This document shows, piece by piece, positions 1,703 to 52,527 of a stretch of DNA of 64,000 bases. The stretch lies in the IMG/VR virus record IMGVR_UViG_3300037418_004082; one strand, written 5' to 3'. The notes beneath the pieces were generated by a model. That model was not told the origin of the DNA, made no database searches, and was given only the letters and a program-made list of their open reading frames with translations. This DNA is from a virus. Position 1 is the stretch's first letter. Each line of letters begins with the position of its first letter. The translations under genes and the position numbers were made by a program.

Positions 1703-2013
1703 AGCAACCGTCCTTTCCGCTTCAAGTTCTCGCGCATCGCGGCTTCGCTTACTCGTTGAATCACGGCGCCCAGCGTGTCCTTCACGTCCTGGTTCGTGTT
1801 CTTGAACACGTAGTTAGCTATCGCCAGTGGCTCGTCTCCGATGATACCCGATATGAACGTGTCCGCAAACGCCTCGTTCACGATAGTCACGTCATCAAAG
1901 TCGATCGTGTGACGACCGTTCGCCGTGTTCGGATTAGCTGGCAACTTAGCCAACTCCCCCAGTACACGTTCTGCTTGCTCGCGCGTCACGAGCTGGGTGT
2001 CTTTGATCTTCAT
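1699..2013 (-). CDS. STAS-like (DUF4325-like) protein
   Basis: TREQAERVL...IDFDDVTIVNEAFADTFISG matches the DUF4325 pattern (LDFxGV...SFADE). Confidence 0.65.
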   Translation of the reverse strand: MKIKDTQLVTREQAERVLGELAKLPANPNTANGRHTIDFDDVTIVNEAFADTFISGIIGDEPLAIANYVFKNTNQDVKDTLGAVIQRVSEAAMRENLKRKGRLL

Positions 2014-5724: not shown

Positions 5725-6081
5725 CTATTTGGCGATGCCACGCGTCGGGAAAGGGAACGGACTCCACGTAACACCACAGTGCTCGCACGTGTGGCTCGTG
5801 TGCCGCACCATGGTAGGTTCGTCAACGTGCTTCTCGCCGCACGTGGGGCAGTCGAGCCGACAGTCCATACCGTTGTGGTTGATGTCCGCCGTGATGGCGT
5901 CCAGGTCTGCCTTCAGCGACGCGAACTGCGGGTAGTTAGCAAGTGCGTTGGCGTAACCCACGAGACCGTAGAACGCGAACGGGTCGCGCTCGTATTCGAA
6001 CGTGAACGTCGGGCCGACGGGCTTGCCGTCCGCACGTGTTACCTTGTACTTGTCGAACAAACCCTTGCCGTGTTCAGGCAT
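5725..6081 (-). CDS. phage protein with C-terminal Zn-binding motif
   Basis: CPTCGEKH...HTSHTCEHCG. Confidence 0.75.
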   Translation of the reverse strand: MPEHGKGLFDKYKVTRADGKPVGPTFTFEYERDPFAFYGLVGYANALANYPQFASLKADLDAITADINHNGMDCRLDCPTCGEKHVDEPTMVRHTSHTCEHCGVTWSPFPFPTRGIAK

Positions 6082-6433
6082 CTTTCTTCTCCTCTGCTTG
6101 GGCGGGTGGCTTCTTGCCGGCCTGGTGTAAGAGGTCGTCCATCATGGCCTTGGTCAGAACCGTGGTCGCGTGGCGGCCGTTCTCCGTGACCGCGATGTAC
6201 CAGCGGTTCTTCTTGTTGCCGCAGGCCAGATACCAGGATTCGAGCAGACCCCAGCCCTCCTTCGGGTAGAGCCAACGCTTGAAGTGCTTGGGCCGACGCA
6301 GCCGGGTGTTCTCCCACAGCATTCGCATCAACAACGTACGTGCAGAGTCTCGTGACGCTTTAGGGTCAACACGCTCGATGTAGCGCTTGACGGCGTGAGC
6401 AGACACGGAGACACCACGCATATTGACGAGCAC
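6074..6433 (-). CDS. basic protein, DUF4258/RelE-like (candidate BECR-fold RNase)
   Basis: SAHAVKRYIER N-terminus and TTVLT C-terminal strand; same pattern as 49090..49452. Confidence 0.55.
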   Translation of the reverse strand: MLVNMRGVSVSAHAVKRYIERVDPKASRDSARTLLMRMLWENTRLRRPKHFKRWLYPKEGWGLLESWYLACGNKKNRWYIAVTENGRHATTVLTKAMMDDLLHQAGKKPPAQAEEKKDA

Positions 6434-13782: not shown

Positions 13783-14058
13783 CTAGGAGGCGACCGCGTC
13801 TCGTTCGACGGCGACGATCGCCTCCGCCTCGCTGTCGATCCAGAGTTCGAGGGGGTTGGCGCCGAGCACGCGGCAGATAGCGAGGTAGATGCTGGTTTCG
13901 GGCTGGCGCTTGCCGCGCTCGTAGCGAGACAGGTACTCCTCGCGCAGCATCTTGGGGTTGCCCTGGTCGTCGAGGTAGCGCACGCGCATCGCCAGCTCGT
14001 GCTGGGTGAGGTTCAGGGCCGTGCGAGCAGCGATGCAGGCTTGGGCGTTGAAGGGCAT
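13783..14058 (-). CDS. XRE-family HTH regulator
   Basis: ARTALNLTQHELA...LSRYERGKRQP...ICRVLG; start moved to ATG 14058 after GAAGGA. Confidence 0.85.
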   Translation of the reverse strand: MPFNAQACIAARTALNLTQHELAMRVRYLDDQGNPKMLREEYLSRYERGKRQPETSIYLAICRVLGANPLELWIDSEAEAIVAVERDAVAS

Positions 14059-14376
14059 GCGGGGTCCTTCTGCGAGGAGGGTGGGAGGGGGAGGGGTATT
14101 TATTTTGGCCGCGTGGCCGCACGCATAACTTTCGCCGCACAAAAGTTGAAACCCTTCGGGCTCCTGGTGTTTCCGGGTCCCGGGTGATGCGTGATGCGGC
14201 CGGGGGCGGTCGGAAATGAGGGGGAGGGGGTGTTTGTGCTTGGGGCGTGAGAGGGTGCGGGTGGGATGTGGATGGGGTGCGAACTTGAGGCGGGTCCCCG
14301 GGTCGGGAGCCTATCTTCGCAGATGCCCCGATACCTGTCAAGAGAGCATGGGTGAACAAACTTTGTCGTTGAGACT

Positions 14377-14577
14377 ATGGTGTCGTGGCTCATGATGATC
14401 GGACGACGCGGCGTCGAAGAACGGCTGGAGGTTCATCGTCGCTGGGTCAACGAGTCAGGCGATCTGCATTCATATACATGCGAGGCGTTGGTGGATGGGG
14501 ATGAGAGGGCTAGGAAGGCGGTTGTTTTGACCCGGAAGGTCTCGGAGTACCCGCCACCCACCCACGGAGGGAAATAG
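14377..14577 (+). CDS. possible small hypothetical protein
   Basis: 66-aa ORF with plausible composition but no clear RBS. Confidence 0.3.
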   Translation: MVSWLMMIGRRGVEERLEVHRRWVNESGDLHSYTCEALVDGDERARKAVVLTRKVSEYPPPTHGGK

Positions 14578-14891
14578 GGTAGTTAGAGAGTGGTTGGGTG
14601 AGGTGCTGGAGTGGGGGAGTTAGGGTATGGATCGGTGGATTGGGTGGTTGGTGGGTGAGATCGGAGGGCGCCCATGTAGGTGCCGCGGGGTGTTCGGATC
14701 TCGAACGCTTGTTTGCACGGTTGCCTGCTGATCACCATTTTTATTTTCGCAACTTTTTCGATCGCCGGCCGCCGAAACAACAAAGCTATAGGGAGAATCC
14801 AGAAAATAACCACCCACCCCCTGGAACAAGAACACCATACGAGGACCGCCACCAACAACACCATAGGGAGAACAAGGGGGAGGGGGTCCCC

Positions 14892-14960
14892 AATTAAATC
14901 ACTATATATATATATATATTTTATTTGATAGTCTTACAAAATAAATAAATAAATAGGAAA
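14892..14960. repeat. AT-rich tract with (TA)8 and AAAT repeats
   Basis: (TA)8 at 14903-14918 and aaaataaataaataaatag in a GC-rich genome. Confidence 0.9.
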
Positions 14961-15048
14961 GGTTGGTGACGTCTTGTCGTTGGTATATCAACTCACGCTG
15001 TAAAATTCGGCGGCGTGCCTGTTTCGAATTTCGATGGTCCACGGGGTC

Positions 15049-15107
15049 CGGCCCGCAAACCCAGTAGGTTCGTGTCACATTGGCGCGGATACGTGGTTTG
15101 CGGGCCG
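15049..15107. repeat. 13-bp perfect inverted repeat
   Basis: CGGCCCGCAAACC (15049-15061) and GGTTTGCGGGCCG (15095-15107). Confidence 0.9.
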
Positions 15108-15166
15108 TGTTACGTGCTGGTGATCGGAGGGGTCCCCTGGTATTTTATCGCGCACGTCTCGTACGT

Positions 15167-15293
15167 GTGGAACGGGTGTTCCACAAACACGCGAAATTCG
15201 ATGGGGTCCTCGACCGAAAAGTGGAACGGGTGTTCCACACGCGCTCGTAATTCGAGGGGGTCCTCGTCGTGTTTGTGGAACGGGTGTTCCACA
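15167..15293. repeat. three palindromic GTGGAAC-GGGT-GTTCCAC boxes at exact 54-bp period
   Basis: Copies start at 15167, 15221 and 15275; both spacers contain AATTCGA(T/G)GGGGTCCTCG. Confidence 0.95.
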
Positions 15294-15529
15294 TGCGCGG
15301 GGAGGGGGTGGGGTATTTTCGGGACGTCGAACGCGTCGTTGGGGAGGGTCTATAATTATGAACAAAATAAGAAAGGTAAAGTTGCGGTTAAACTGTACAA
15401 AATAAATTCAAGGGGGTCCCCCTCGCGCACGGCCCGAAAATTACAGGGGGACCCCTGCGCGAACGCATGAAAAACGCGTGACCGAACACGAAAACCGTGT
15501 CGATCACGCGGGGGAGGGGGTCTAATTAT

Positions 15530-16837
15530 TTATTGAACGAGCACGAGTTCGTCCGCCGCGCGGGTGATCCCCGTGTACAAAAGTTGCCGACGCGTGTTCT
15601 GGTCGCCGAAGGGCTCGTAGATGTATATGACACGCTTCCACTCGGAGCCCTGGCTTTTATGACATGTGATGGCGTAGCCGTACTCCAGGTTGTAGTGCGG
15701 GTTGTGGTTGTCCGGCTTCACCTCGTCCTGGGGCTCGAACCAGTCCAGGCTGCAGACCAGCTCGCGGAACTCGTGCTGGGTGTCCTCCCAGCCCTGGACG
15801 CTCAAGTAGAGCGTGCGCTCGTGGCGGTCCACGTCGCGGCTGGGCACGTCCTTGAGGACGCGGCAGTGCCAGCCGTTGATCAGCGGGAGGCCGCCGTTGG
15901 TGCTGCGCTCCTCCCAGTCGTTCTTGCGGTTGATCAGCTTGTCGCCCTTCTTGGGCAAGCCCTCGAACCCCAGCATCTGGCGCATCACGCCGTTCAGGTG
16001 GTCCTTGGTGCGGTTCAGCCCGCAGATGATCTGGTCCGCGTGCTGCAGGTCGCTCTGCATGAGGTAGTTGTAGGGGATGACGCGGAACTGCGGGCTGTAC
16101 ACGCCGTAGGGGAGCTGGTAGCCCTGGCGCACCTGCATGCTGGCCCACAGGATGGGGTTGTCCGCGGCCTGGCGGTGCACCTGCGTCAGCACGGCATCCG
16201 GCTTCTGCAGGAACGGGTTCATGCGGTCCTTGACCGGCGGGAGCTGCTCCGGGTCGCCCAGCAGCAACACGGGCGTGCCCAAGGAGAGCAGGTCCGCGAG
16301 CACCTTGCGGCTGACCATCGAGACCTCGTCCACCACGAACAGCCGCCACGGGATCGTGTCGGGCGTGCGCAGCTTGAAGCCCTTCACACGTTCCTTCTGG
16401 CGCCCCGTGTGCGGACACGTGTACTTCTCCGTGATGGGCACGTAGATGGTCTTGTGAATGGTCTCGGCGGGCGTGCCCTTGTTCGTGAGCACGAGCGCGG
16501 CCTTGCCGGTATACGTCATGTACTGCACGTCGTTCGGCTTCAACCCCAGGGATTCGATGGCCTGTTTCAAGACCGTGCTCTTGCCCACACCCGCGTAACC
16601 CGCGACGGTGAACACGAGCTGTTGTAACCGCAAGTGGTTCCACCAGTAACGAATCTGCTTGACCACGGACTCTTGCTCGCGCGTCAGCGTGATGCTGCTC
16701 GATGGCAAGATGATACGCGGCTTGTCGTCGTCAGGCAGCACGAGCTTCGTTGGAACGGACGTAGCCTTCTCCTGCTCGCGTTGCGCCTTGTAGGCCGCGG
16801 TGACGCGGGCGATGGCGGTCTCGAACCTGTCGGTCAT
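15530..16837 (-). CDS. SF1B helicase, Dda/RecD-like
   Basis: GYAGVGKST, VVDEVSMV, GDPEQLPPV, HRQA, YAITCHKSQGSEW, YTGITRA; start MTDRF at 16837. Confidence 0.92.
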   Translation of the reverse strand: MTDRFETAIARVTAAYKAQREQEKATSVPTKLVLPDDDKPRIILPSSSITLTREQESVVKQIRYWWNHLRLQQLVFTVAGYAGVGKSTVLKQAIESLGLKPNDVQYMTYTGKAALVLTNKGTPAETIHKTIYVPITEKYTCPHTGRQKERVKGFKLRTPDTIPWRLFVVDEVSMVSRKVLADLLSLGTPVLLLGDPEQLPPVKDRMNPFLQKPDAVLTQVHRQAADNPILWASMQVRQGYQLPYGVYSPQFRVIPYNYLMQSDLQHADQIICGLNRTKDHLNGVMRQMLGFEGLPKKGDKLINRKNDWEERSTNGGLPLINGWHCRVLKDVPSRDVDRHERTLYLSVQGWEDTQHEFRELVCSLDWFEPQDEVKPDNHNPHYNLEYGYAITCHKSQGSEWKRVIYIYEPFGDQNTRRQLLYTGITRAADELVLVQ

Positions 16838-42266: not shown

Positions 42267-42812
42267 GTGCCCCGTACCCTCACCAACACCACGCTCGACG
42301 GCGCCAAGAAGAAGATCCCCGACCTCGAAGTGTTCGGCGGCGACGACTGGAAGCTGCTCAACAAGGCGTCCAGCGAAGAAGAAGGCTGGATGAAGACCAC
42401 CAAGGCGTACGAGATCCCCGGCGTCGGGTGCCTCGTGCAGTGCGAGACGATGCAGCGCAACGGCGACAGCGTCCAGATCGCCACCATCGACCAGGCCGAC
42501 GAGAACGTGATCAAGTCGTTCCGCGATCGCGCGGAGGCCGAAGGCGGCAAGCTGGTCAACGAGCGCAAGTACGAGCACTCGTACATCAAGGGCCAGGCGC
42601 AGTCGCCGTTCTCGCCGCCGTCCAACCACCCGGAGATGCAGGGCGAGAAGGTGACGACCACGCTCGTCGAGTTGACCTTCGCCCACAAGGGCCAGTGGTG
42701 GGCGTTGTCCGGCGGCGACCCGACCTTCGTGCCCGGCGTGCGCATCGACACGCAGTACGACGCGGACGGCAAGACCGTGATCAGCCGGAAGCTCGTCAAG
42801 ATCGACTCGTAA
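42267..42812 (+). CDS. conserved phage protein
   Basis: VFG.DDWKLL.KASS..EGWMK.TKA.EI.G.GC.VQ...FVPGV.I. Confidence 0.7.
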   Translation: MPRTLTNTTLDGAKKKIPDLEVFGGDDWKLLNKASSEEEGWMKTTKAYEIPGVGCLVQCETMQRNGDSVQIATIDQADENVIKSFRDRAEAEGGKLVNERKYEHSYIKGQAQSPFSPPSNHPEMQGEKVTTTLVELTFAHKGQWWALSGGDPTFVPGVRIDTQYDADGKTVISRKLVKIDS

Positions 42813-42822
42813 CCGTTTCCGT

Positions 42823-42870
42823 GCGGCCGCGCTGGATTCTAATCGAATCCGGGGCGGCCGTCATCGTTTT
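42823..42870 (+). terminator. putative terminator hairpin
   Basis: GCGGCCGC..TGGATTC/GAATCCG..GCGGCCG followed by CATCGTTTTT. Confidence 0.5.
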
Positions 42871-42896
42871 TGCAAGCCAGGGAGGATAACTAAACC

Positions 42897-43268
42897 ATGG
42901 ACCCGTACCGCAGACCGACCCCGGAACTCGACCATCCCGACGAGGAGGTGAAGCCCATGCGCCCGCGCAACAAGATCCTGCAGGACACCGCCGGCCACCC
43001 GAACCACGTGATGATCGAGGTGTTGCTCGACGTCCGCGACCACCTGGCCGACGTCAAGACGCATCTCGCGCAGATCCAGGCGCGCCAGGACAAGACGCTG
43101 GAGAAGCTGGACGAGATCTACCACGAGCTGCCGCCACGCTCCGACGCCGACGACGCCATCAAGGCGATCAAGCAACTCGCGGGCGAGGTCAGCAGCGAGC
43201 TGGAGGGTCCTCGCGCGCTGGACGTGTTCTGCAGCGCACTCCTTCGGGAAACGCCTCACGAGAACTAG
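42897..43268 (+). CDS. coiled-coil hypothetical protein
   Basis: 123 aa after GGAGG. Confidence 0.7.
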   Translation: MDPYRRPTPELDHPDEEVKPMRPRNKILQDTAGHPNHVMIEVLLDVRDHLADVKTHLAQIQARQDKTLEKLDEIYHELPPRSDADDAIKAIKQLAGEVSSELEGPRALDVFCSALLRETPHEN

Positions 43269-43326
43269 GCAAAACATCAGACAAGCGGGTATAATGGCCT
43301 CCGTATCGCATTCGCATCACATTCGA

Positions 43327-43932
43327 ATGGCGGAGGCCGTCGTGCTGGAAGATGAAGATTGGCGAGCCCGTGCGCTCGCGGCAGAAGAACGTGCCACGTC
43401 GGCCGAAGCCAGCGTCATCAAGTTCATGCAGAGCAAGGACGAGTGGCACGCCGTTGCCATTCGTGTGACGGGCGAACGTGACGAGGCGCGCAAGGCGTTG
43501 ACGGCAGCGGAAGAAGCGAAGGCCGACGCCAACCGCTGGTGCACGCACTGGCAGACGATGGCCCACACGTTGATGGACGTCAAGAACGACGTGCAGGGCA
43601 TCTTGATCGAGTTGGTCAAGGTCAAGGACCTGAAGGACACGCAAGGCAAGACGCCGGAGTACGAGGAGCGCCAGCCCAAGGTGTGGCAGGCCGCTCGTAT
43701 GCACGTGCTGTCGGCGATGCGCGACTGGCTGCGCCCCGGCGGCCCCTCGGAGTACCTGCCCCCGCCCGACAGCTACGCCGGCCAGCTCGCGCGGATCGAA
43801 GCGGCCGCGCACACGCTGATGGACGTCATCACGAAGGCGCGCCGCGCACCCGACAACATGACCGAAGAGGAGGCGATCCAGGTGCTCGCCGAAGCCTGCG
43901 GTCGCACGTTCTACCGTCGCCCTACACCATAG
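43327..43932 (+). CDS. coiled-coil hypothetical protein
   Basis: Start placed downstream of the CGGGTATAAT element at 43286. Confidence 0.7.
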   Translation: MAEAVVLEDEDWRARALAAEERATSAEASVIKFMQSKDEWHAVAIRVTGERDEARKALTAAEEAKADANRWCTHWQTMAHTLMDVKNDVQGILIELVKVKDLKDTQGKTPEYEERQPKVWQAARMHVLSAMRDWLRPGGPSEYLPPPDSYAGQLARIEAAAHTLMDVITKARRAPDNMTEEEAIQVLAEACGRTFYRRPTP

Positions 43933-43944
43933 GAGGACCTGCCC

Positions 43945-44211
43945 ATGTCGTTCCACCCGCGCGATCTCCTGGCCATGGGCGATACGCTCGCCCAGACCAC
44001 CGGCTTGCCCAGCCAGGCCAAGCTGCAGCACCAGTTCCTGGAGGAGGCGCTGCCGCAGGCCACGCCCGACTTCGTGTGGAAGACCACGATGAACGGGCAG
44101 AGCTGCGAGCTGACGCTGGCAGAGTGCCGTGACTACTACAAGGAGCTGTGTGAACGGCTGGAGTTGAAGCCCAAGGCTACGTGCCTGACGACGCAGGAGA
44201 ACGCGGAATGA
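43945..44211 (+). CDS. hypothetical protein
   Basis: 88 aa after AGGAGG. Confidence 0.7.
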   Translation: MSFHPRDLLAMGDTLAQTTGLPSQAKLQHQFLEEALPQATPDFVWKTTMNGQSCELTLAECRDYYKELCERLELKPKATCLTTQENAE

Positions 44212-44675
44212 ACGCGCAAGAATGGGAAGACGAGAGCAACCGCGTGCTGCTGATCCTGCGGCCGCACATGACGGATCGTCAACGAGACCACGTGAACGAC
44301 TTCATCGACGAGGTGAAGGCGGAGCTGACGAAGCAGCCGCTCAACAAGACGTGGAAGGAAACGGCCGACCACTTCCACACGTTGTTCGCTCGCGAGAACA
44401 AGCCGCGCTTCAAGGCCACGAACACGTTGAACGTCGTGTTCCAGTTCATGGGCTTCGCGCAGCGTTGGGTGCCGCCGTCGGACCTGACCATCGAGAGTGC
44501 GCCCAACCGGCGCACGCACCGCTTCGAGGTGGAGATCGAGGCGTCGCTGCGTGGCGGCGGTCCGACGGGTGACCAGCGGCCCACGAAGGAGCAGATCCAG
44601 AACGTGGCCTACAACAAGCTCAAGGCCAGCATCGGGCTGACCGACATCGAGTTCGTCAAGGTGACGGTGCTCTGA
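44208..44675 (+). CDS. hypothetical protein
   Basis: MNAQEWED...; ATGA overlap. Confidence 0.7.
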   Translation: MNAQEWEDESNRVLLILRPHMTDRQRDHVNDFIDEVKAELTKQPLNKTWKETADHFHTLFARENKPRFKATNTLNVVFQFMGFAQRWVPPSDLTIESAPNRRTHRFEVEIEASLRGGGPTGDQRPTKEQIQNVAYNKLKASIGLTDIEFVKVTVL

Positions 44676-44947
44676 TGCCGATCGACGGCTGGCACCTGTG
44701 CCTGGACAAGCTGCAGCACCCCGACGACCAGCAAGACGCCCGGCTCGCACTGGCGCGCGAGCTGGTCCCGCTCGCCGACCAGATCCTGTGCGCCAAGATG
44801 ACGCTCCGGGAGAAGGTCAAGGCGCGCGAGGACGCGGAAGCGGCATACAAGACGGCGTGCGACGAGGAGGCCGCCGCGCAGTCACGCTTGCTGACGCTGC
44901 AGACCGCATACGACAACCGCGTGAAGGCCGGGGTGATCGCGCCGTGA
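44675..44947 (+). CDS. coiled-coil hypothetical protein
   Basis: 90 aa, coupled. Confidence 0.65.
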   Translation: MPIDGWHLCLDKLQHPDDQQDARLALARELVPLADQILCAKMTLREKVKAREDAEAAYKTACDEEAAAQSRLLTLQTAYDNRVKAGVIAP

Positions 44948-45195
44948 AGAAGCTGCGGCGCGTCTGGCGCAACGTGCGAGCGCTGTGGGTCCACTGCCCC
45001 AGCCTGCGCCTGCCGATGGTCGTGTGCGTGCTCGCGTGGGTGGCCCTCATCGTGCTGGGCGCTCGACTTGGCGTGGACTTCGTCAAGATGTGGGTCGCCT
45101 GCCCCGACCTGCACGTACAGATGACGTTCGGCGCCATCGCACTCGTAACCTTCGAGGTCTGGTTCTTTCGTTGGGCGTTGCGCAAGGAGAAGTAG
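44944..45195 (+). CDS. small two-TM membrane protein
   Basis: Two hydrophobic helices; GTGA overlap. Confidence 0.65.
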   Translation: MKKLRRVWRNVRALWVHCPSLRLPMVVCVLAWVALIVLGARLGVDFVKMWVACPDLHVQMTFGAIALVTFEVWFFRWALRKEK

Positions 45196-45198
45196 CAC

Positions 45199-46440
45199 GT
45201 GGTCCTGTCGGTCATCAACCAGCTCGAACAAACCAGCGGCAACGCGCGCATCGAAGCTTTGCGTGCTGGTGACAGCGAGCTGTTACGCACGATCCTCTTG
45301 TACACGTACAATCCGCGTTGGACGTACGGCATCAAGCAGGTGCCGGAGTGGTCGTGTCACGACGAGCGCTGCGGCCACAACCTGACGATCGAGCAGTGGC
45401 TCCGACTGTTGGACCGCCTGGCCGCCCGGGAGCTTACGGGCCACGCGGCCCAGCAGGCGGTGGCTGCTGCTCTCCACGGGCTGGCGCACGTCGGTGGACC
45501 TCGCCTGGTCGATCTGTGCACGCGGGTGCTGCTGCGCGACCTTCGCGTGGGGCTCAACACCAAGAGCATCAACAAGGTCTTCCCGGACCTCGTGCCCGTC
45601 CACCAGATGATGCTCGCGCAGCCCTACGAGGAGAAGCGCCTGGGCGATGACGAGTTCTTCATCATCGACTGGAAGAACGACGGCTTCCGGTGCGAGGTGA
45701 AGGCCGACGCGCACGACGTCGAGCTGCTCACGCGCAACGGCAACATCATCAAGGGCTTCGACCAGGTGCGCTTCGGCGTGCAGGAGCTGGTCAAGGTCGT
45801 CGGCGGGGACTTGAACCTCGACGGCGAGCTGATGGTGCCGATGTTCGTGGACGAGGACGAGGGCGTGGATCGCGCGGCCGCGATGCCGAACGTGCCCCTC
45901 GTGCTGTTCGACCTCATCAGCACGAACGCGGTGACGGAGATGAACGAGAGCACGCCGCTGCACCGCCGCCTCGCGTTCATGCAGAAGTACGTCAATCTCG
46001 TCGCCAACCCGTTCGTGCACCACTCGCCCGCGTACGTGTCGAACAACCGATCGCACATCGACATCTACTTCCGTCACGTGCTCGACCAGGGCGGCGAGGG
46101 CGTGATGGTCAAGCGGTACGCGTCGCCGTACGTGCGCAAGCGCAGCTACGACTGGATGAAGTACAAGCCCACGAAGGACATCGACCTCGTCATCCACGGC
46201 TGGTTCGAGGGCGAGAAGGGCAAGAAGTTCGAGGGCACGTTGGGCGGCTTCCTCGTGATGCACGGGGACGTCGAGGTGCGCGTGCCACCCGGCAAGGGCA
46301 TCAAGGACAAGAAGCGCCACGAGCTGTGGGAGAAGCGCGAAGCGTGCGTCGGCCAGACGCTGGAGATCCAGTACCTGGAGGAGACGCCCGACGGAAGCTT
46401 GCGCCACCCGCGTTTCGTCCGTCTGCGAGCAAACAAGTAG
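45199..46440 (+). CDS. ATP-dependent DNA ligase
   Basis: Motif I DWKNDGFR, III LDGEL, IIIa LFDL, IV EGVMVK, V WMKYK, VI PRFVRLR. Confidence 0.95.
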   Translation: MVLSVINQLEQTSGNARIEALRAGDSELLRTILLYTYNPRWTYGIKQVPEWSCHDERCGHNLTIEQWLRLLDRLAARELTGHAAQQAVAAALHGLAHVGGPRLVDLCTRVLLRDLRVGLNTKSINKVFPDLVPVHQMMLAQPYEEKRLGDDEFFIIDWKNDGFRCEVKADAHDVELLTRNGNIIKGFDQVRFGVQELVKVVGGDLNLDGELMVPMFVDEDEGVDRAAAMPNVPLVLFDLISTNAVTEMNESTPLHRRLAFMQKYVNLVANPFVHHSPAYVSNNRSHIDIYFRHVLDQGGEGVMVKRYASPYVRKRSYDWMKYKPTKDIDLVIHGWFEGEKGKKFEGTLGGFLVMHGDVEVRVPPGKGIKDKKRHELWEKREACVGQTLEIQYLEETPDGSLRHPRFVRLRANK

Positions 46441-46473
46441 GCGAGCTGATAATCCAACCGGAGGGCTAAGACC

Positions 46474-47535: not shown

Positions 47536-48090
47536 ATGAAACGCTGGATGACGTACTTGCTGTTGGCACTGATGGTGCTGCTGTCGTTGACGCCGCTCGC
47601 GCAGTCGAAGACCACGCGTGAGCCCGTGCAGAAATTGATCCACGCCACGATCACGGACGTACACGACGGCGACACCGTCACGGCGCTGGTCGATCCATTG
47701 ACCGTGCTGCACGTACGTTTGTTGGGTATCGACGCACCGGAGCTGAAGCAGGCGCCCTGGGGCGTGAAGTCGCGCGACACCTTGAAGGCCCTCGTGATGG
47801 GCAAGCTCGTGGCGATCATCGTGATGGACGCGGACCACCCGACCGACGTGTACGGCCGCACGCTGGCCTACCTGTGGGTCGGCAGCACCATGGTGCAGGA
47901 GCAGCTCGTGCTCGCGGGCATGGCCCAGACGAAGTTGTACGGCAAGGCGCCCAAGGACTTCCAGCGCCTGGTGGCGGCGGAAGCGATGGCGAAGGCAGCG
48001 CACGCGGGCTTGTGGAGCGACGAGGCGTTCATCGCGCCGTCGGACTGGCGCAAGCAGCACCATGTTGGGAAAGCCGGCGCCGGGAGATAA
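47536..48090 (+). CDS. thermonuclease (SNase-like) with signal peptide
   Basis: DGDT, VRLLGIDAPE, DVYGRTLAY, GLWS. Confidence 0.93.
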   Translation: MKRWMTYLLLALMVLLSLTPLAQSKTTREPVQKLIHATITDVHDGDTVTALVDPLTVLHVRLLGIDAPELKQAPWGVKSRDTLKALVMGKLVAIIVMDADHPTDVYGRTLAYLWVGSTMVQEQLVLAGMAQTKLYGKAPKDFQRLVAAEAMAKAAHAGLWSDEAFIAPSDWRKQHHVGKAGAGR

Positions 48091-48117
48091 TCCAGGTATG
48101 AGCGCTCAACGCGTTTG

Positions 48118-48390
48118 AATAGCCGAAAGGCGCGGGGAGGCGGTAGTGGTGCACCGCCCGTCTTCCTGTCTCTGGGGGCTTGACGCAGAGTGCCGCCGCA
48201 GCGTAGTCTGCACGTAGGTGATGATAGCCGGCCTGCCTGCCGGAGGGAGCCTTGGGTCGTCGGGTCGAAGCGCGCGAGCGTGATGGGACCAACCGCGTGG
48301 GGGACGGCCGCACCTGGCGGGGTCGGTGTCCACGTGAACCGCTGCGAGCGCGAGGCGCGGCTCTTGGGCAAGGCCGAACGTGCTTTTCTC
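48118..48390 (+). ncRNA. unclassified structured RNA
   Basis: Non-coding; hairpins GCC-GAAA-GGC, GGCGGT/ACCGCC, CTCTG/CAGAG, CCGGC/GCCGG; follows AGATAATCC at 48085. Confidence 0.5.
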
Positions 48391-48482
48391 GGCGAAGCAA
48401 GCTGCAGTGCGCCACGCCGGAGGTGGCAGGCTCCCGTTCCAGGAGCCCGGGAAACCCGCAGGTTCGACTCCTGCCTTCGCCA
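48391..48482 (+). ncRNA. tRNA-like RNA A
   Basis: 7-bp acceptor GGCGAAG/CTTCGCC and canonical T-arm GCAGG-TTCGACT-CCTGC; three interior hairpins, no canonical D or anticodon loop. Confidence 0.7.
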
Positions 48483-48518
48483 CTTGACGAACGCGATGGT
48501 CGTCTGCTAAAGTAGCTC

Positions 48519-48590
48519 CGCGCTGTAGAGCAGTGGCAGCTCGCGTGGCTCATAACCACGAGGTCGTCGGTTCAAGTCCGATCAGCGCAA
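48519..48590 (+). tRNA. trnfM: tRNA-fMet(CAT), initiator type
   Basis: Cloverleaf with C1:A72 mismatch, CTCATAA loop, TTCAAGT T-loop; CCA not encoded. Confidence 0.9.
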
Positions 48591-48593
48591 CTT

Positions 48594-48724
48594 GCCGGGC
48601 CGCTTGGCGTGGGTTACCGTTTTGGACAGTGATCCCCACGTCGAACTTTTGTCTGGCAAACCTCTGGGGGTGGGAGTGAATCCGGCTGCTAAAGCGGCCC
48701 CGGGAGTAGCACCCGGTTCCCCCT
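48594..48724 (+). ncRNA. structured spacer RNA
   Basis: GGGCCGCT/AGCGGCCC 8-bp pairing, GTGGG/CCCAC stem, CCGGG-N7-CCCGG T-arm-like hairpin. Confidence 0.45.
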
Positions 48725-48730
48725 TCAACG

Positions 48731-48856
48731 TAAGCACTAGCTACAAGCCGTGTCGCGAGGCACGGACACCGCCCGGGTGACCGGGGTTCACGGTGGGCAG
48801 AGCGACTTGAGGGGCAACCCTCTTGCGGGTTCCCGGTTCGAGCCCGGGGTGCGTAC
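48731..48856 (+). ncRNA. tRNA-like RNA B
   Basis: Acceptor TAAGCAC/GTGCGTA (6 of 7 paired), T-arm CCCGG-TTCGAGC-CCGGG, GAGGG-GCAA-CCCTC at the anticodon position. Confidence 0.6.
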
Positions 48857-48858
48857 AG

Positions 48859-48930
48859 GCTCCTCTAGCTCAACGGTAGAGCGCTCGCCTGATAAGCGGG
48901 AGGCACCAGGGTCAGTACCTGGGTGGAGCA
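48859..48930 (+). tRNA. trnI: tRNA-Ile(GAT) with non-canonical T-loop
   Basis: GCTC/GAGC D-stem, CTCGC-CTGATAA-GCGGG anticodon arm, T-loop GTCAGTA, one U-U in the acceptor stem. Confidence 0.8.
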
Positions 48931-48932
48931 CT

Positions 48933-49036
48933 GCCAAGCCGAACGTACGGACCGCGACCGCAAGGCGTAGGGACGTCGGACGTGACCCGACCCGCAAGGG
49001 CGGGGGTAGGTTAAAGAAGTCCTGCCGGCGGCACCA
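48933..49036 (+). ncRNA. tRNA-like RNA C ending in encoded ACCA
   Basis: GCC(AA)GCCG/CGGCGGC acceptor-like stem plus ACCA; GTAGG/CCTGC T-like arm; two GCAA tetraloop hairpins. Confidence 0.5.
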
Positions 49037-49089
49037 ACTTCGGGTTCCGTAACCATCCTGCACTCACGGCGGATAATCCTCTTAGAGGG

Positions 49090-49452
49090 TTGCCCGCCGT
49101 GAGTGTTTCTGTTACGCCACACGCCATCCAGCGCTACATCGAGCGCGCGTTCAACACGTCGCCCGACGCGGCGGCCAAGTTGATCATGAACTGCGTGCTC
49201 ATGGCCAAGGGCCGCAAGAAGCGTGGCCGGGACATGCTGATCCGGCGCGTGCGCATCCTGGACGGCCGGGGCGTCGAGCACTTCTACCTGAAGTTCGTCA
49301 CGCCCCAGCGCAAGCGCGTGTACCTCGCGGTGGACGCCCGGCTGTCGATCGTCTACACCGTGCTGACGCTGGAGATGTTCAAGGATCTGATCGGATCGCC
49401 CAGGCCGCGCACCGCGAAACGTCGTGACGACGCGGAGTTAAGCGACGATTAA
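49090..49452 (+). CDS. basic protein, DUF4258/RelE-like (candidate RNase)
   Basis: TPHAIQRYIER...YTVLT; same pattern as 6074..6433; preceded by GGATAATCC. Confidence 0.6.
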   Translation: MPAVSVSVTPHAIQRYIERAFNTSPDAAAKLIMNCVLMAKGRKKRGRDMLIRRVRILDGRGVEHFYLKFVTPQRKRVYLAVDARLSIVYTVLTLEMFKDLIGSPRPRTAKRRDDAELSDD

Positions 49453-49484
49453 TATTACGTTACAAGAAAGTTATCCAAAACCCG

Positions 49485-49514
49485 TTGACGGATCGGGAGC
49501 GGTCGCGGTAACGT
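49485..49514 (+). promoter_or_regulatory. sigma70-like promoter
   Basis: TTGACG-N18-TAACGT directly upstream of the structured non-coding block. Confidence 0.55.
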
Positions 49515-50040
49515 ATGAGAGTCCCGGTTGGGACGACGCTCTGCTCCCGGTTGTGTCGGGTGCGCTGCACGGTTTCCTCCTCTGGTGAGCTTGCCGCCTT
49601 CGATGGTAGTAGCTACCCGGCGAAAGGAGCCCAACGTGCGCCCTCCATGACCCCGACGAACGTCGAGTCCACCCTCCCGGAACTCGATCGGTTCTCCGAA
49701 CCCTCCCCTGGGTTCGCGCCGACGGAACGATGCTCTCGGCTCTCCTGCTTCGGCGGGGCCCAGAATCGGGAGCTATCCGCTTCACTCGCCCACGTGTGGT
49801 GCCTGGCAGCAATGCCTACTCCGTGCAAAGCTCGTGACGCGCGAGATGTCGTTCTGGCCCAGGTCCTGGTGTCGCGGCCAGGTTCCGTGCTTCCTCGTGT
49901 TGCAGGCTCGACGGCGATTAAAAGGCTGCTACCTCCGAACGCGGCATCCGGTGCTGCTGGCCCTCGTGGTCCGCGCGCCCACCGCAGGCAATCGCCAACC
50001 GACCCCCGTCGAGCCTCGTGCCCGGCGGGGTGTTTCGTTT
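49515..50040 (+). ncRNA. ~520-nt large structured RNA, unclassified
   Basis: cUUCGg at 49744-49757, GGCA-GCAA-TGCC at 49805-49816, 11-bp long-range helix 49904-49914/50006-50016, plus GGCGATT/AATCGCC. Confidence 0.65.
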
Positions 50041-50091
50041 GTGACGCTTCGTTACAAGTTCGAAATGTGACGGTTCATAAAGCTTGTCTGA

Positions 50092-50100
50092 TGATATACT
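50092..50100 (+). promoter_or_regulatory. extended -10 element
   Basis: TG-A-TATACT upstream of the AAGGAGG RBS of 50122. Confidence 0.5.
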
Positions 50101-50121
50101 CGTCAGAAGGAGGGCCGTCGC

Positions 50122-50385
50122 TTGTCGTTGCTGAACCACCGTCGCTACCACCTGGTCACCACCGTCGAGCAGAACAGCTCCGTGACCAAGAGCGTCCCCG
50201 CCCTGAAGATGGTCGTCAACGGTCCAACGTCCGCGGGCGCCATGCAGGCGTTGCAGGCCAAGCTCTCCAACTTCGCGATGAGCGTGCACGCGGGCGAGCG
50301 TCGCCTCCCCAAGTCCGACGCGCGCCCCGGCTTGGAGTACCTGGCGTTCGACCTGGTGATGGAGCACGATCTCGCGCGTCGCTAG
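50122..50385 (+). CDS. hypothetical protein
   Basis: TTG start after GAAGGAGG; 87 aa. Confidence 0.7.
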   Translation: MSLLNHRRYHLVTTVEQNSSVTKSVPALKMVVNGPTSAGAMQALQAKLSNFAMSVHAGERRLPKSDARPGLEYLAFDLVMEHDLARR

Positions 50386-51887: not shown

Positions 51888-52472
51888 ATGCAGCAGAACC
51901 AGGACGTCGCGGAGCAGGTCAAGCAGGCGTTCGCCGCCGACCCGTACTTCCAGAAGATGGAGGTCCTCAAGGCCGCCGGCCAGCTCGCGCCGGAGACCTT
52001 GCACCTGTACGAGCAGGAGAAGGAAGCCGCGTTCGAGGCACTGACCCGCCCGTTCCGCGCGCTTTCGCGGGGCGTCGGGGCCGTTGCCGACTCGCCGATG
52101 AAGGGCCAGATGGGGCTGGGCGAGCGCTTGAGCACCGCGCTCAAGGCGACGCGCCAGAGCATGGGCGTCCTCAAGAAGGAGGACGCCGCGTCGGCCGCCG
52201 CGGCCCAGACCATGAAGCAGACCCGCCAGCAGGCGGTGCTCGACGCGCACGCGAAGCAGGACGGCTCCGGCAGCGCCGCGACGTTCACGCCGCCGTCGAT
52301 GATGGACAAGGCCCGCCACTTCTTCGGCAAGCCGCTCGACGCCAACGACCCCAAGGGCTTCACGCGCGGCCACGCGGCGATGGCGCTGGGTGGTCTCGGC
52401 GCACTGGGCGCGGGCACCGGCGCCGTGGCGCACCACTTGATCGCAGGTGGTCAGCCGTCGCCCGACACGTAA
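51888..52472 (+). CDS. putative virion protein sharing its C-terminus with 50419..51876
   Basis: MQQNQD... after AGAGGAG; ends TRGHAAMALGGLGALGAGTG. Confidence 0.65.
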   Translation: MQQNQDVAEQVKQAFAADPYFQKMEVLKAAGQLAPETLHLYEQEKEAAFEALTRPFRALSRGVGAVADSPMKGQMGLGERLSTALKATRQSMGVLKKEDAASAAAAQTMKQTRQQAVLDAHAKQDGSGSAATFTPPSMMDKARHFFGKPLDANDPKGFTRGHAAMALGGLGALGAGTGAVAHHLIAGGQPSPDT

Positions 52473-52491: not shown

Positions 52492-52527
52492 AGTCCTACG
52501 TCAACCTTGACGTAGGACTTTTTGTTT
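52492..52527 (+). terminator. intrinsic terminator
   Basis: 13-bp perfect inverted repeat AGTCCTACGTCAA/TTGACGTAGGACT followed by TTTTGTTT. Confidence 0.85.

Follow-up and report, generated by a model that had tools for sequence, protein, structure and literature searches.

Between a tRNA island and a three-gene operon of an uncultured phage lies a stretch of about 520 nt (49515-50040) that a first-pass annotation had described as an ornate non-coding RNA with its own promoter, either ROOL/GOLLD-like or of a new class. The question raised by this locus is whether it holds an RNA gene at all, and of what kind, or whether it is a protein gene, the remains of one, or the leader of the operon that follows. 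The window, i.e., the whole stretch of DNA analysed (64,000 nt of IMG/VR record IMGVR_UViG_3300037418_004082, GC 64.7%), carries replication genes (family-A DNA polymerase, primase-helicase, helicase, ATP-dependent ligase and a staphylococcal-type nuclease) and, among the genes from 52603 on, matches to tail-fibre and head-decoration families; with both replication and virion genes present, it is therefore part of a phage genome. In the protein collection, the 485-aa protein of the downstream operon is assigned to several contigs, the longest of which has 193,568 bp. The DNA polymerase is less than 30% identical to that of any deposited phage, and the nearest relative of the ligase among 5.8 billion proteins is 36% identical. 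As judged from these sequences, the source is an orphan, high-GC, uncultured phage. The features on which the analysis draws are as follows.

48519-48591: tRNA-Met of the tRNA island, upstream of the studied stretch
48859-48931: tRNA-Ile of the tRNA island, upstream of the studied stretch
49453-49484, plus strand: left flank, part of a 48%-GC segment (49453-49514)
49485-49514, plus strand: promoter-like site, with TTGACG at 49485-49490, an 18-nt spacer and TAACGT at 49509-49514
49515-50040, plus strand: non-coding core, GC 65.8% (C 35.2%, G 30.6%, U 20.7%, A 13.5%)
49521-49534, plus strand: 5' hairpin GUCCC-GGUU-GGGAC at the presumed RNA start, -8.5 kcal/mol, pairing probability 0.78
49662-49688, plus strand: hairpin with the C-rich loop CCACCCUCCCGGA, pairing probability 0.85
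49698-49715, plus strand: hairpin with loop UCCCCU adjoining the preceding one, pairing probability 0.99
49732-49773, plus strand: long irregular hairpin capped by a cUUCGg tetraloop (49744-49757), pairing probabilities 0.72-0.86
49904-49914 (AGGCTCGACGG) with 50006-50016, plus strand: 11-bp perfect long-range complement, pairing probability about 0.49
50001-50042, plus strand: terminator-like hairpin, stem 50004-50011 with 50023-50030, then UGUUUCGUUUGU
50043-50121, plus strand: right flank, part of a 48%-GC segment (50041-50121), with the start signals of the 87-aa gene

The tRNA-cluster context claimed for the stretch was confirmed, both tRNA-Met and tRNA-Ile being located 0.6-1 kb upstream of the non-coding unit, with a 120-aa gene (49090-49452, plus strand) separating them from it. 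The island itself (48100-49040) has more non-coding sequence than these two sound tRNAs account for. At 48357-48483, ARAGORN calls two tRNAs that overlap, both oversized and one on each strand (Glu-UUC, 83 nt; Arg-CCG, 100 nt), neither of which was confirmed by the Rfam tRNA model. A very stable hairpin at 49060-49107 (-36 kcal/mol; windows over it have z about -5) encloses GGATAATCC together with the 120-aa gene's ribosome-binding site and start, and may control transcription or translation of that gene.

To ask whether the stretch is translated, we trained a codon log-odds score on 18 genes of the phage that had been called with confidence. Across 49360-50169 the score was negative in all six frames (best frame -0.26 to -0.45 bits per codon), as it also was in the tRNA island, whereas the real genes tested scored +0.3 to +1.1 bits per codon, two genes of atypical composition lying at +0.3 to +0.6. 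Third-position GC was flat from 49400 to 50080, compared with 0.85-1.0 in the flanking genes, and no third-position GC periodicity was seen in the stretch; a faint excess (0.72-0.76) was found in a single frame over 49476-49700. The ORFs within the stretch (35-113 aa, plus an open frame of 202 aa) scored -0.3 to -1.1 bits per codon and had no Pfam match at E up to 1, and the 202-aa frame had no homologue among 5.8 billion proteins. On L001, a second contig of the same phage, public gene calling placed no gene in this stretch. The stretch is thus without coding, as the first-pass annotation had it, by codon log-odds, periodicity, Pfam and homologue searches alike. The same annotation had taken a 985-aa ORF starting here to look spurious, and rightly so: it is an open frame in GC-rich DNA that runs out of frame across two real genes and coincides with a real gene only at 51888-52472.

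These data make it very improbable that the stretch encodes a protein, or several small proteins, of unusual composition. Such a reading could point to the presence of the 35-113 aa ORFs and the 202-aa frame, and to AAAGGAG at 49623-49629, but the start codon that follows this motif yields 4 codons only, the translations show the abundance of Arg, Cys and Trp that random GC-rich frames have, and every candidate ORF scores negative where even the atypical genes of this phage score positive; the empty Pfam and homologue searches stand against it as well. Elsewhere in the window, about 1.6 kb at 14011-15630, between minus-strand replication genes, also has a negative coding score in six frames, with low GC (0.55-0.56) and a strong GC skew (+0.28); it may represent an origin or some other element that does not code. 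A replication origin or iteron array was considered for 49515-50040 too and dropped, as the stretch has only short two-copy repeats and high GC.

The composition of the core changes sharply at both ends. The segments beside it have 48% GC each (62 nt before, 49453-49514, and 81 nt after, 50041-50121), and these low-GC flanks coincide with the promoter and with the start region of the next gene. Of nine non-coding stretches of at least 300 nt in the window, only the core and the tRNA island (0.65) keep genome-level GC, the other seven having 0.50-0.59. The distance from promoter to terminator is about 520 nt within a gap of 669 nt. To our knowledge, the large structured RNAs known so far seldom combine more C than G with as little A (13.5%).

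GC at the level of coding sequence is also what a recently decayed gene would keep. The stretch could thus be inert remnant DNA, i.e., a decayed gene or an inserted segment kept as a spacer between the early RNA and DNA-metabolism genes and the virion genes, with end signals that serve the neighbours or arise by chance. We consider this rather unlikely. Consistent with it are the faint third-position GC excess noted above, fold statistics like those of random GC-rich sequence (see below), an exact 9-nt direct repeat, CGTTACAAG, that flanks the unit (49458-49466 and 50050-50058, with no other copy in the window), and a 17-nt identity between 49829-49845 and coding sequence elsewhere in the window (1978-1994, minus strand; E 0.01 within the window). 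The latter site lies where a minus-strand ORF starts (ATG at 2012), and the identity may be due to chance or be the trace of a past recombination. On the other hand, no frame has a positive codon score even locally, the longest frame has no homologue in the protein search given above, and by our estimate about one such 9-nt direct repeat is expected by chance per 700 nt. The composition, moreover, changes exactly at the promoter and the terminator, and useless DNA is usually lost quickly from phage genomes, which we count against a remnant. A mobile insertion with a 9-bp target duplication was dropped as a candidate, since one such repeat is expected by chance; by eye, the ends carry no convincing terminal inverted repeats.

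The promoter claimed for the unit, TTGACG-N18-TAACGT, is present directly upstream, as would befit a stand-alone bacterial-type RNA gene. It fits the host-type form TTGACN-N17/18-TAnnnT, which is typical of high-GC bacteria; its -10 hexamer, TAACGT, matches TATAAT at 3 of 6 positions. Matches to the pattern are over-represented in this genome. TTGACG-N16-19-TAANGT is found at two places in the window, compared with 0.03 expected, at 49485 and at 48484, the second being TTGACG-N18-TAAAGT, which ends 5 nt before tRNA-Met in the same layout as at 49485. The looser form TTGAC-N16-19-TANNNT occurs 8 times against 1.5 expected and is likewise enriched over shuffles. All three of its plus-strand sites (48180, 48484 and 49485) are in the RNA island, and three minus-strand sites fall, by comparison with the ORF map, in gaps upstream of early minus-strand genes. 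From this promoter, transcription would start near 49520-49522, at the foot of the small 5' hairpin. The 120-aa gene upstream has no hairpin behind its stop codon (window 49361-49480, z +0.69), and transcripts from upstream should therefore also enter the core.

At the 3' end, the terminator-like hairpin, which spans 50001-50034 ahead of UGUUUCGUUUGU, has a predicted energy of about -20 kcal/mol (50000-50042) and was listed by a terminator scan, and the window 50001-50120 has a fold z of -3.8. Its U-tract is interrupted, and the number of terminator-like sites in the region equals that expected from shuffles. Beyond it lie the signals of the 87-aa gene, namely an extended -10 (TGATATACT, 50092-50100), a ribosome-binding site (GAAGGAGG) and a TTG start at 50122. 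This gene opens an operon of three (87, 485 and 194 aa) that closes with a strong terminator at 52492-52519. In both of the other contigs of this phage (L001 and L002) that terminator has a CC to GG change at 52505-52506, which we place in its loop, so that the stem is kept. Direct repeats of TGTGACGSTTC at 50040-50050 and 50066-50076, the copies 26 nt apart, are located just upstream of the extended -10; the repeat resembles GTTGACGGATC in the promoter at 49484 and may be a candidate binding site for a regulator.

A promoter of constitutive type, then a terminator, then genes is also the layout of a regulated leader. The promoter at 49485 could in that case drive the three-gene operon through a long leader whose terminator acts as a checkpoint, read through only once a phage factor has modified the polymerase. 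The late leader of phage lambda (PR'-6S RNA-tR') follows the same logic. That the operon meets its own strong terminator not before 52492-52519, and lies on the same strand as the virion-protein genes beginning after it (matches from 52603 on), would suit such an arrangement. Yet the first gene of the operon is preceded, 22 nt before its start, by an extended -10 of its own, and in a read-through RNA a predicted hairpin at 50087-50107 would partly cover its ribosome-binding site. The virion genes further downstream have a copy of TGATAATTC each (4 exact copies in all). We identified no antiterminator gene, and 520 nt is long for an element of this kind. We hold a leader to be unlikely. TGATAATTC itself looks like a candidate late promoter. 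Its four exact copies (52550, 54131, 56201 and 61447) are all on the plus strand and precede virion gene starts by 33-53 nt, and with one-mismatch copies at 46447, 47332 and 26243 there are 7 matches in total compared with 2.05 expected; it is absent from the studied stretch.

How well defined would an RNA from this unit be? Each structural element listed in the first-pass annotation was found at or within 1 nt of where it had been placed, including GTCCC-GGTT-GGGAC at 49521-49534 and the GGCA-GCAA-TGCC hairpin at 49805-49816. The long-range arrangement, in which an 11-bp helix was to enclose a second one, held in part. Both pairs of complements are there, the inner being GGCGATT (49913-49919) with AATCGCC (49990-49996). 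The inner pair, however, overlaps the 11-bp helix by two bases, and its pairing probability is 0.02, against about 0.49 for the outer, and in the pairing ensemble the 11-bp helix and the terminator hairpin are mutually exclusive.

The term "ornate" was not supported by comparison with chance. The minimum free energy of 49510-50045 on the plus strand is -228.8 kcal/mol, compared with -221.7 +/- 7.6 kcal/mol for dinucleotide shuffles (z -0.94). Of same-size windows of the genome, 10.5% have at least two UNCG/GNRA hairpins and 11.6% a perfect helix of at least 11 bp, so that both the tetraloop hairpins and the long helix are within chance rates. Windows of 120 nt inside the stretch have z from -1.5 to +1.6, a test that is weak either way because real tRNAs score no better in GC-rich DNA. 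The ensemble of pairings is diffuse, the best pairing probability being 0.3-0.55 on average, and has well-defined local elements at 49521-49534, 49662-49688, 49698-49715, 49732-49773 and 49950-49979. Single-sequence statistics thus give no support for a fold of unusual stability or definition. The minus strand was rejected as the source of an RNA, as it has no signals and a whole-stretch z of +0.74.

Two of the well-defined hairpins carry C-rich loops, and the core as a whole has 5 copies of CCUCC, the complement of the GGAGG ribosome-binding core. The copy in the 49662-49688 loop is unpaired with a probability of 0.98, and another spans the stem-loop junction of the 49698-49715 hairpin. At least 5 copies are found in 21 of 2514 other windows, and about 1.7 would be expected (estimate) from the composition of the core itself; the excess is modest, was noticed after the fact and is largely explained by the C-rich composition. 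By analogy, the loops suggest pairing with G-rich ribosome-binding regions, as in regulatory RNAs with C-rich loops, for example 6C RNA in Actinobacteria and RsaE/RoxS in Firmicutes. The resemblance to these RNAs is in the loops (CCACCCUCCCGGA and UCCCCU here) that can pair with G-rich ribosome-binding sites, whereas they are about 60-120 nt long and the present unit matches no Rfam family. A trans-acting antisense target inside the window was dropped, the best complementarity being 15-16 nt with E 0.12 or worse.

Comparison with known RNA families was done by cmscan against Rfam 15 (4227 models), using the gathering threshold on the whole window and E up to 10 on 2.3 kb and 686 nt. At gathering score, the whole window gave two tRNAs only. 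At E up to 10, the 2.3-kb and 686-nt searches gave noise only, with no match to ROOL (which we take to be RF03087), GOLLD (presumably RF01998), OLE, RNase P or tmRNA, and ARAGORN found no tmRNA in the whole window. The reported absence of RNase P and tmRNA signatures therefore agrees with Rfam and, for tmRNA, with ARAGORN also. The ROOL/GOLLD-like assignment, in contrast, fails this covariance-model check, which the first-pass annotation had itself proposed, and a resemblance in context and size is what is left of it.

That resemblance is to phage- or prophage-encoded RNAs often found near tRNA islands, ROOL averaging 581 nt and one studied GOLLD member sitting downstream of a tRNA-Met (bioRxiv 10.1101/2024.12.08.627333; PMC5737381). 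Like ROOL, the unit is located in a phage with tRNAs nearby and is of similar size (~520 nt against about 580 nt). ROOL, however, is defined by multistem junctions and pseudoknots, and differs from this unit, which has no covariance-model match, very much in host range and GC content. With GOLLD the unit shares a phage setting near tRNAs and, with one studied member, a place downstream of a tRNA-Met, but many GOLLD members exceed 800 nt and have a universally conserved 3' domain, whereas the unit is ~520 nt in a 669-nt gap and has no model match. A further comparison is with phage T4, whose tRNA cluster encodes the stable RNAs C and D, which are not tRNAs and are co-expressed with the tRNAs. 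These are also encoded beside phage tRNA genes; they are about 120-140 nt long and processed from a tRNA precursor, whereas the unit described here is about four times longer and has its own promoter and a protein gene between it and the tRNAs.

Searches for relatives of the locus covered DNA, neighbouring proteins and other contigs of the phage. In 50,697 phage records, neither blastn with the stretch nor megablast with 20 kb gave a match at the DNA level, and tblastn with the neighbouring proteins of 485 and 120 aa was empty or uninformative there. Pattern scans of IMG/VR (485-aa, 120-aa and DNA polymerase proteins, and an alignment of the 120-aa family) found no relatives of the flanking proteins, and neither did scans of JGI metagenome contigs and GTDB genomes with the 120-aa family alignment. 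A word-based protein search with the 485-aa neighbour returned its own cluster only. Contigs carrying relatives of the ligase (L003-L006, at most 36% identical) were not syntenic.

An exhaustive profile search placed the 120-aa neighbour in a family of 14 representative clusters with the motif HAxxRYxER...YTVLT. A paralogue at 6074-6433 (minus strand) is about 30-34% identical to the protein of 49090-49452, and neither of the two had a Pfam or PHROG match. The best foreign match (44% identity) is on a 799-bp contig and the next (41%) is in another gene context without a long gap; homologues of this family elsewhere are not beside long non-coding gaps. Two further contigs, L001 and L002, represent the same phage at 99.7% identity, and L001 alone covers the stretch. 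The phage is present in JGI samples 3300037420 and 3300037471. L001 shows zero differences from the window over 47647 to 50331, which is no evidence of constraint, because the 2.9 kb at 42419-45332 are equally free of differences.

On sequence grounds, then, 49515-50040 is real as an untranslated unit; its limits are sharp and the signals at its two ends plausible. Because no protein is encoded while a promoter-like site and a terminator-like hairpin stand at its ends, it is probably an RNA gene. We infer from this that it is transcribed, and with it the stability of the RNA and any role that it may have. Our preferred explanation, a stand-alone early non-coding RNA, is tentative, and we put it just short of an even chance. 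According to it, the stretch would be transcribed separately, as a non-coding unit that closes the phage RNA island on its 3' side. Host RNA polymerase would start near 49521 from the TTGACG-N18-TAACGT promoter and make an RNA of about 520 nt that is GC-rich, C-rich and A-poor, beginning with the small 5' hairpin. Transcription would end at the hairpin and U-rich tract of 50001-50042. Transcripts of the tRNAs and the 120-aa gene would probably run in too, because no terminator separates these from the stretch. The product would act as RNA rather than as message, with several local hairpins, two of them displaying C-rich loops containing CCUCC. The most concrete guess at a mechanism is that these loops might pair with G-rich Shine-Dalgarno regions, or act by decoy binding.

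A more far-reaching proposal is that the unit opens a new class of large non-coding RNAs in phages. Its RNA would parallel ROOL and GOLLD in function and have an ornate, defined tertiary or multimeric structure of a kind that folding a lone sequence does not bring out, and it would be made early by host polymerase beside the tRNA island of a deep-branching lineage of high-GC jumbo phages. We regard this as improbable: one sequence cannot show a new class, and no test that was run supports it. For the present, the locus is a lead in an orphan phage genome, with support that extends to an untranslated, probably transcribed unit. The interest of the proposal lies in the fact that ROOL and GOLLD, found beside phage tRNA islands, form RNA-only cages. 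If it were true, a third, unrelated RNA of similar size and setting in a very different lineage would point to selection for such RNAs in this setting, and the phage would offer a further system in which to seek the function of large RNAs beside tRNA islands.
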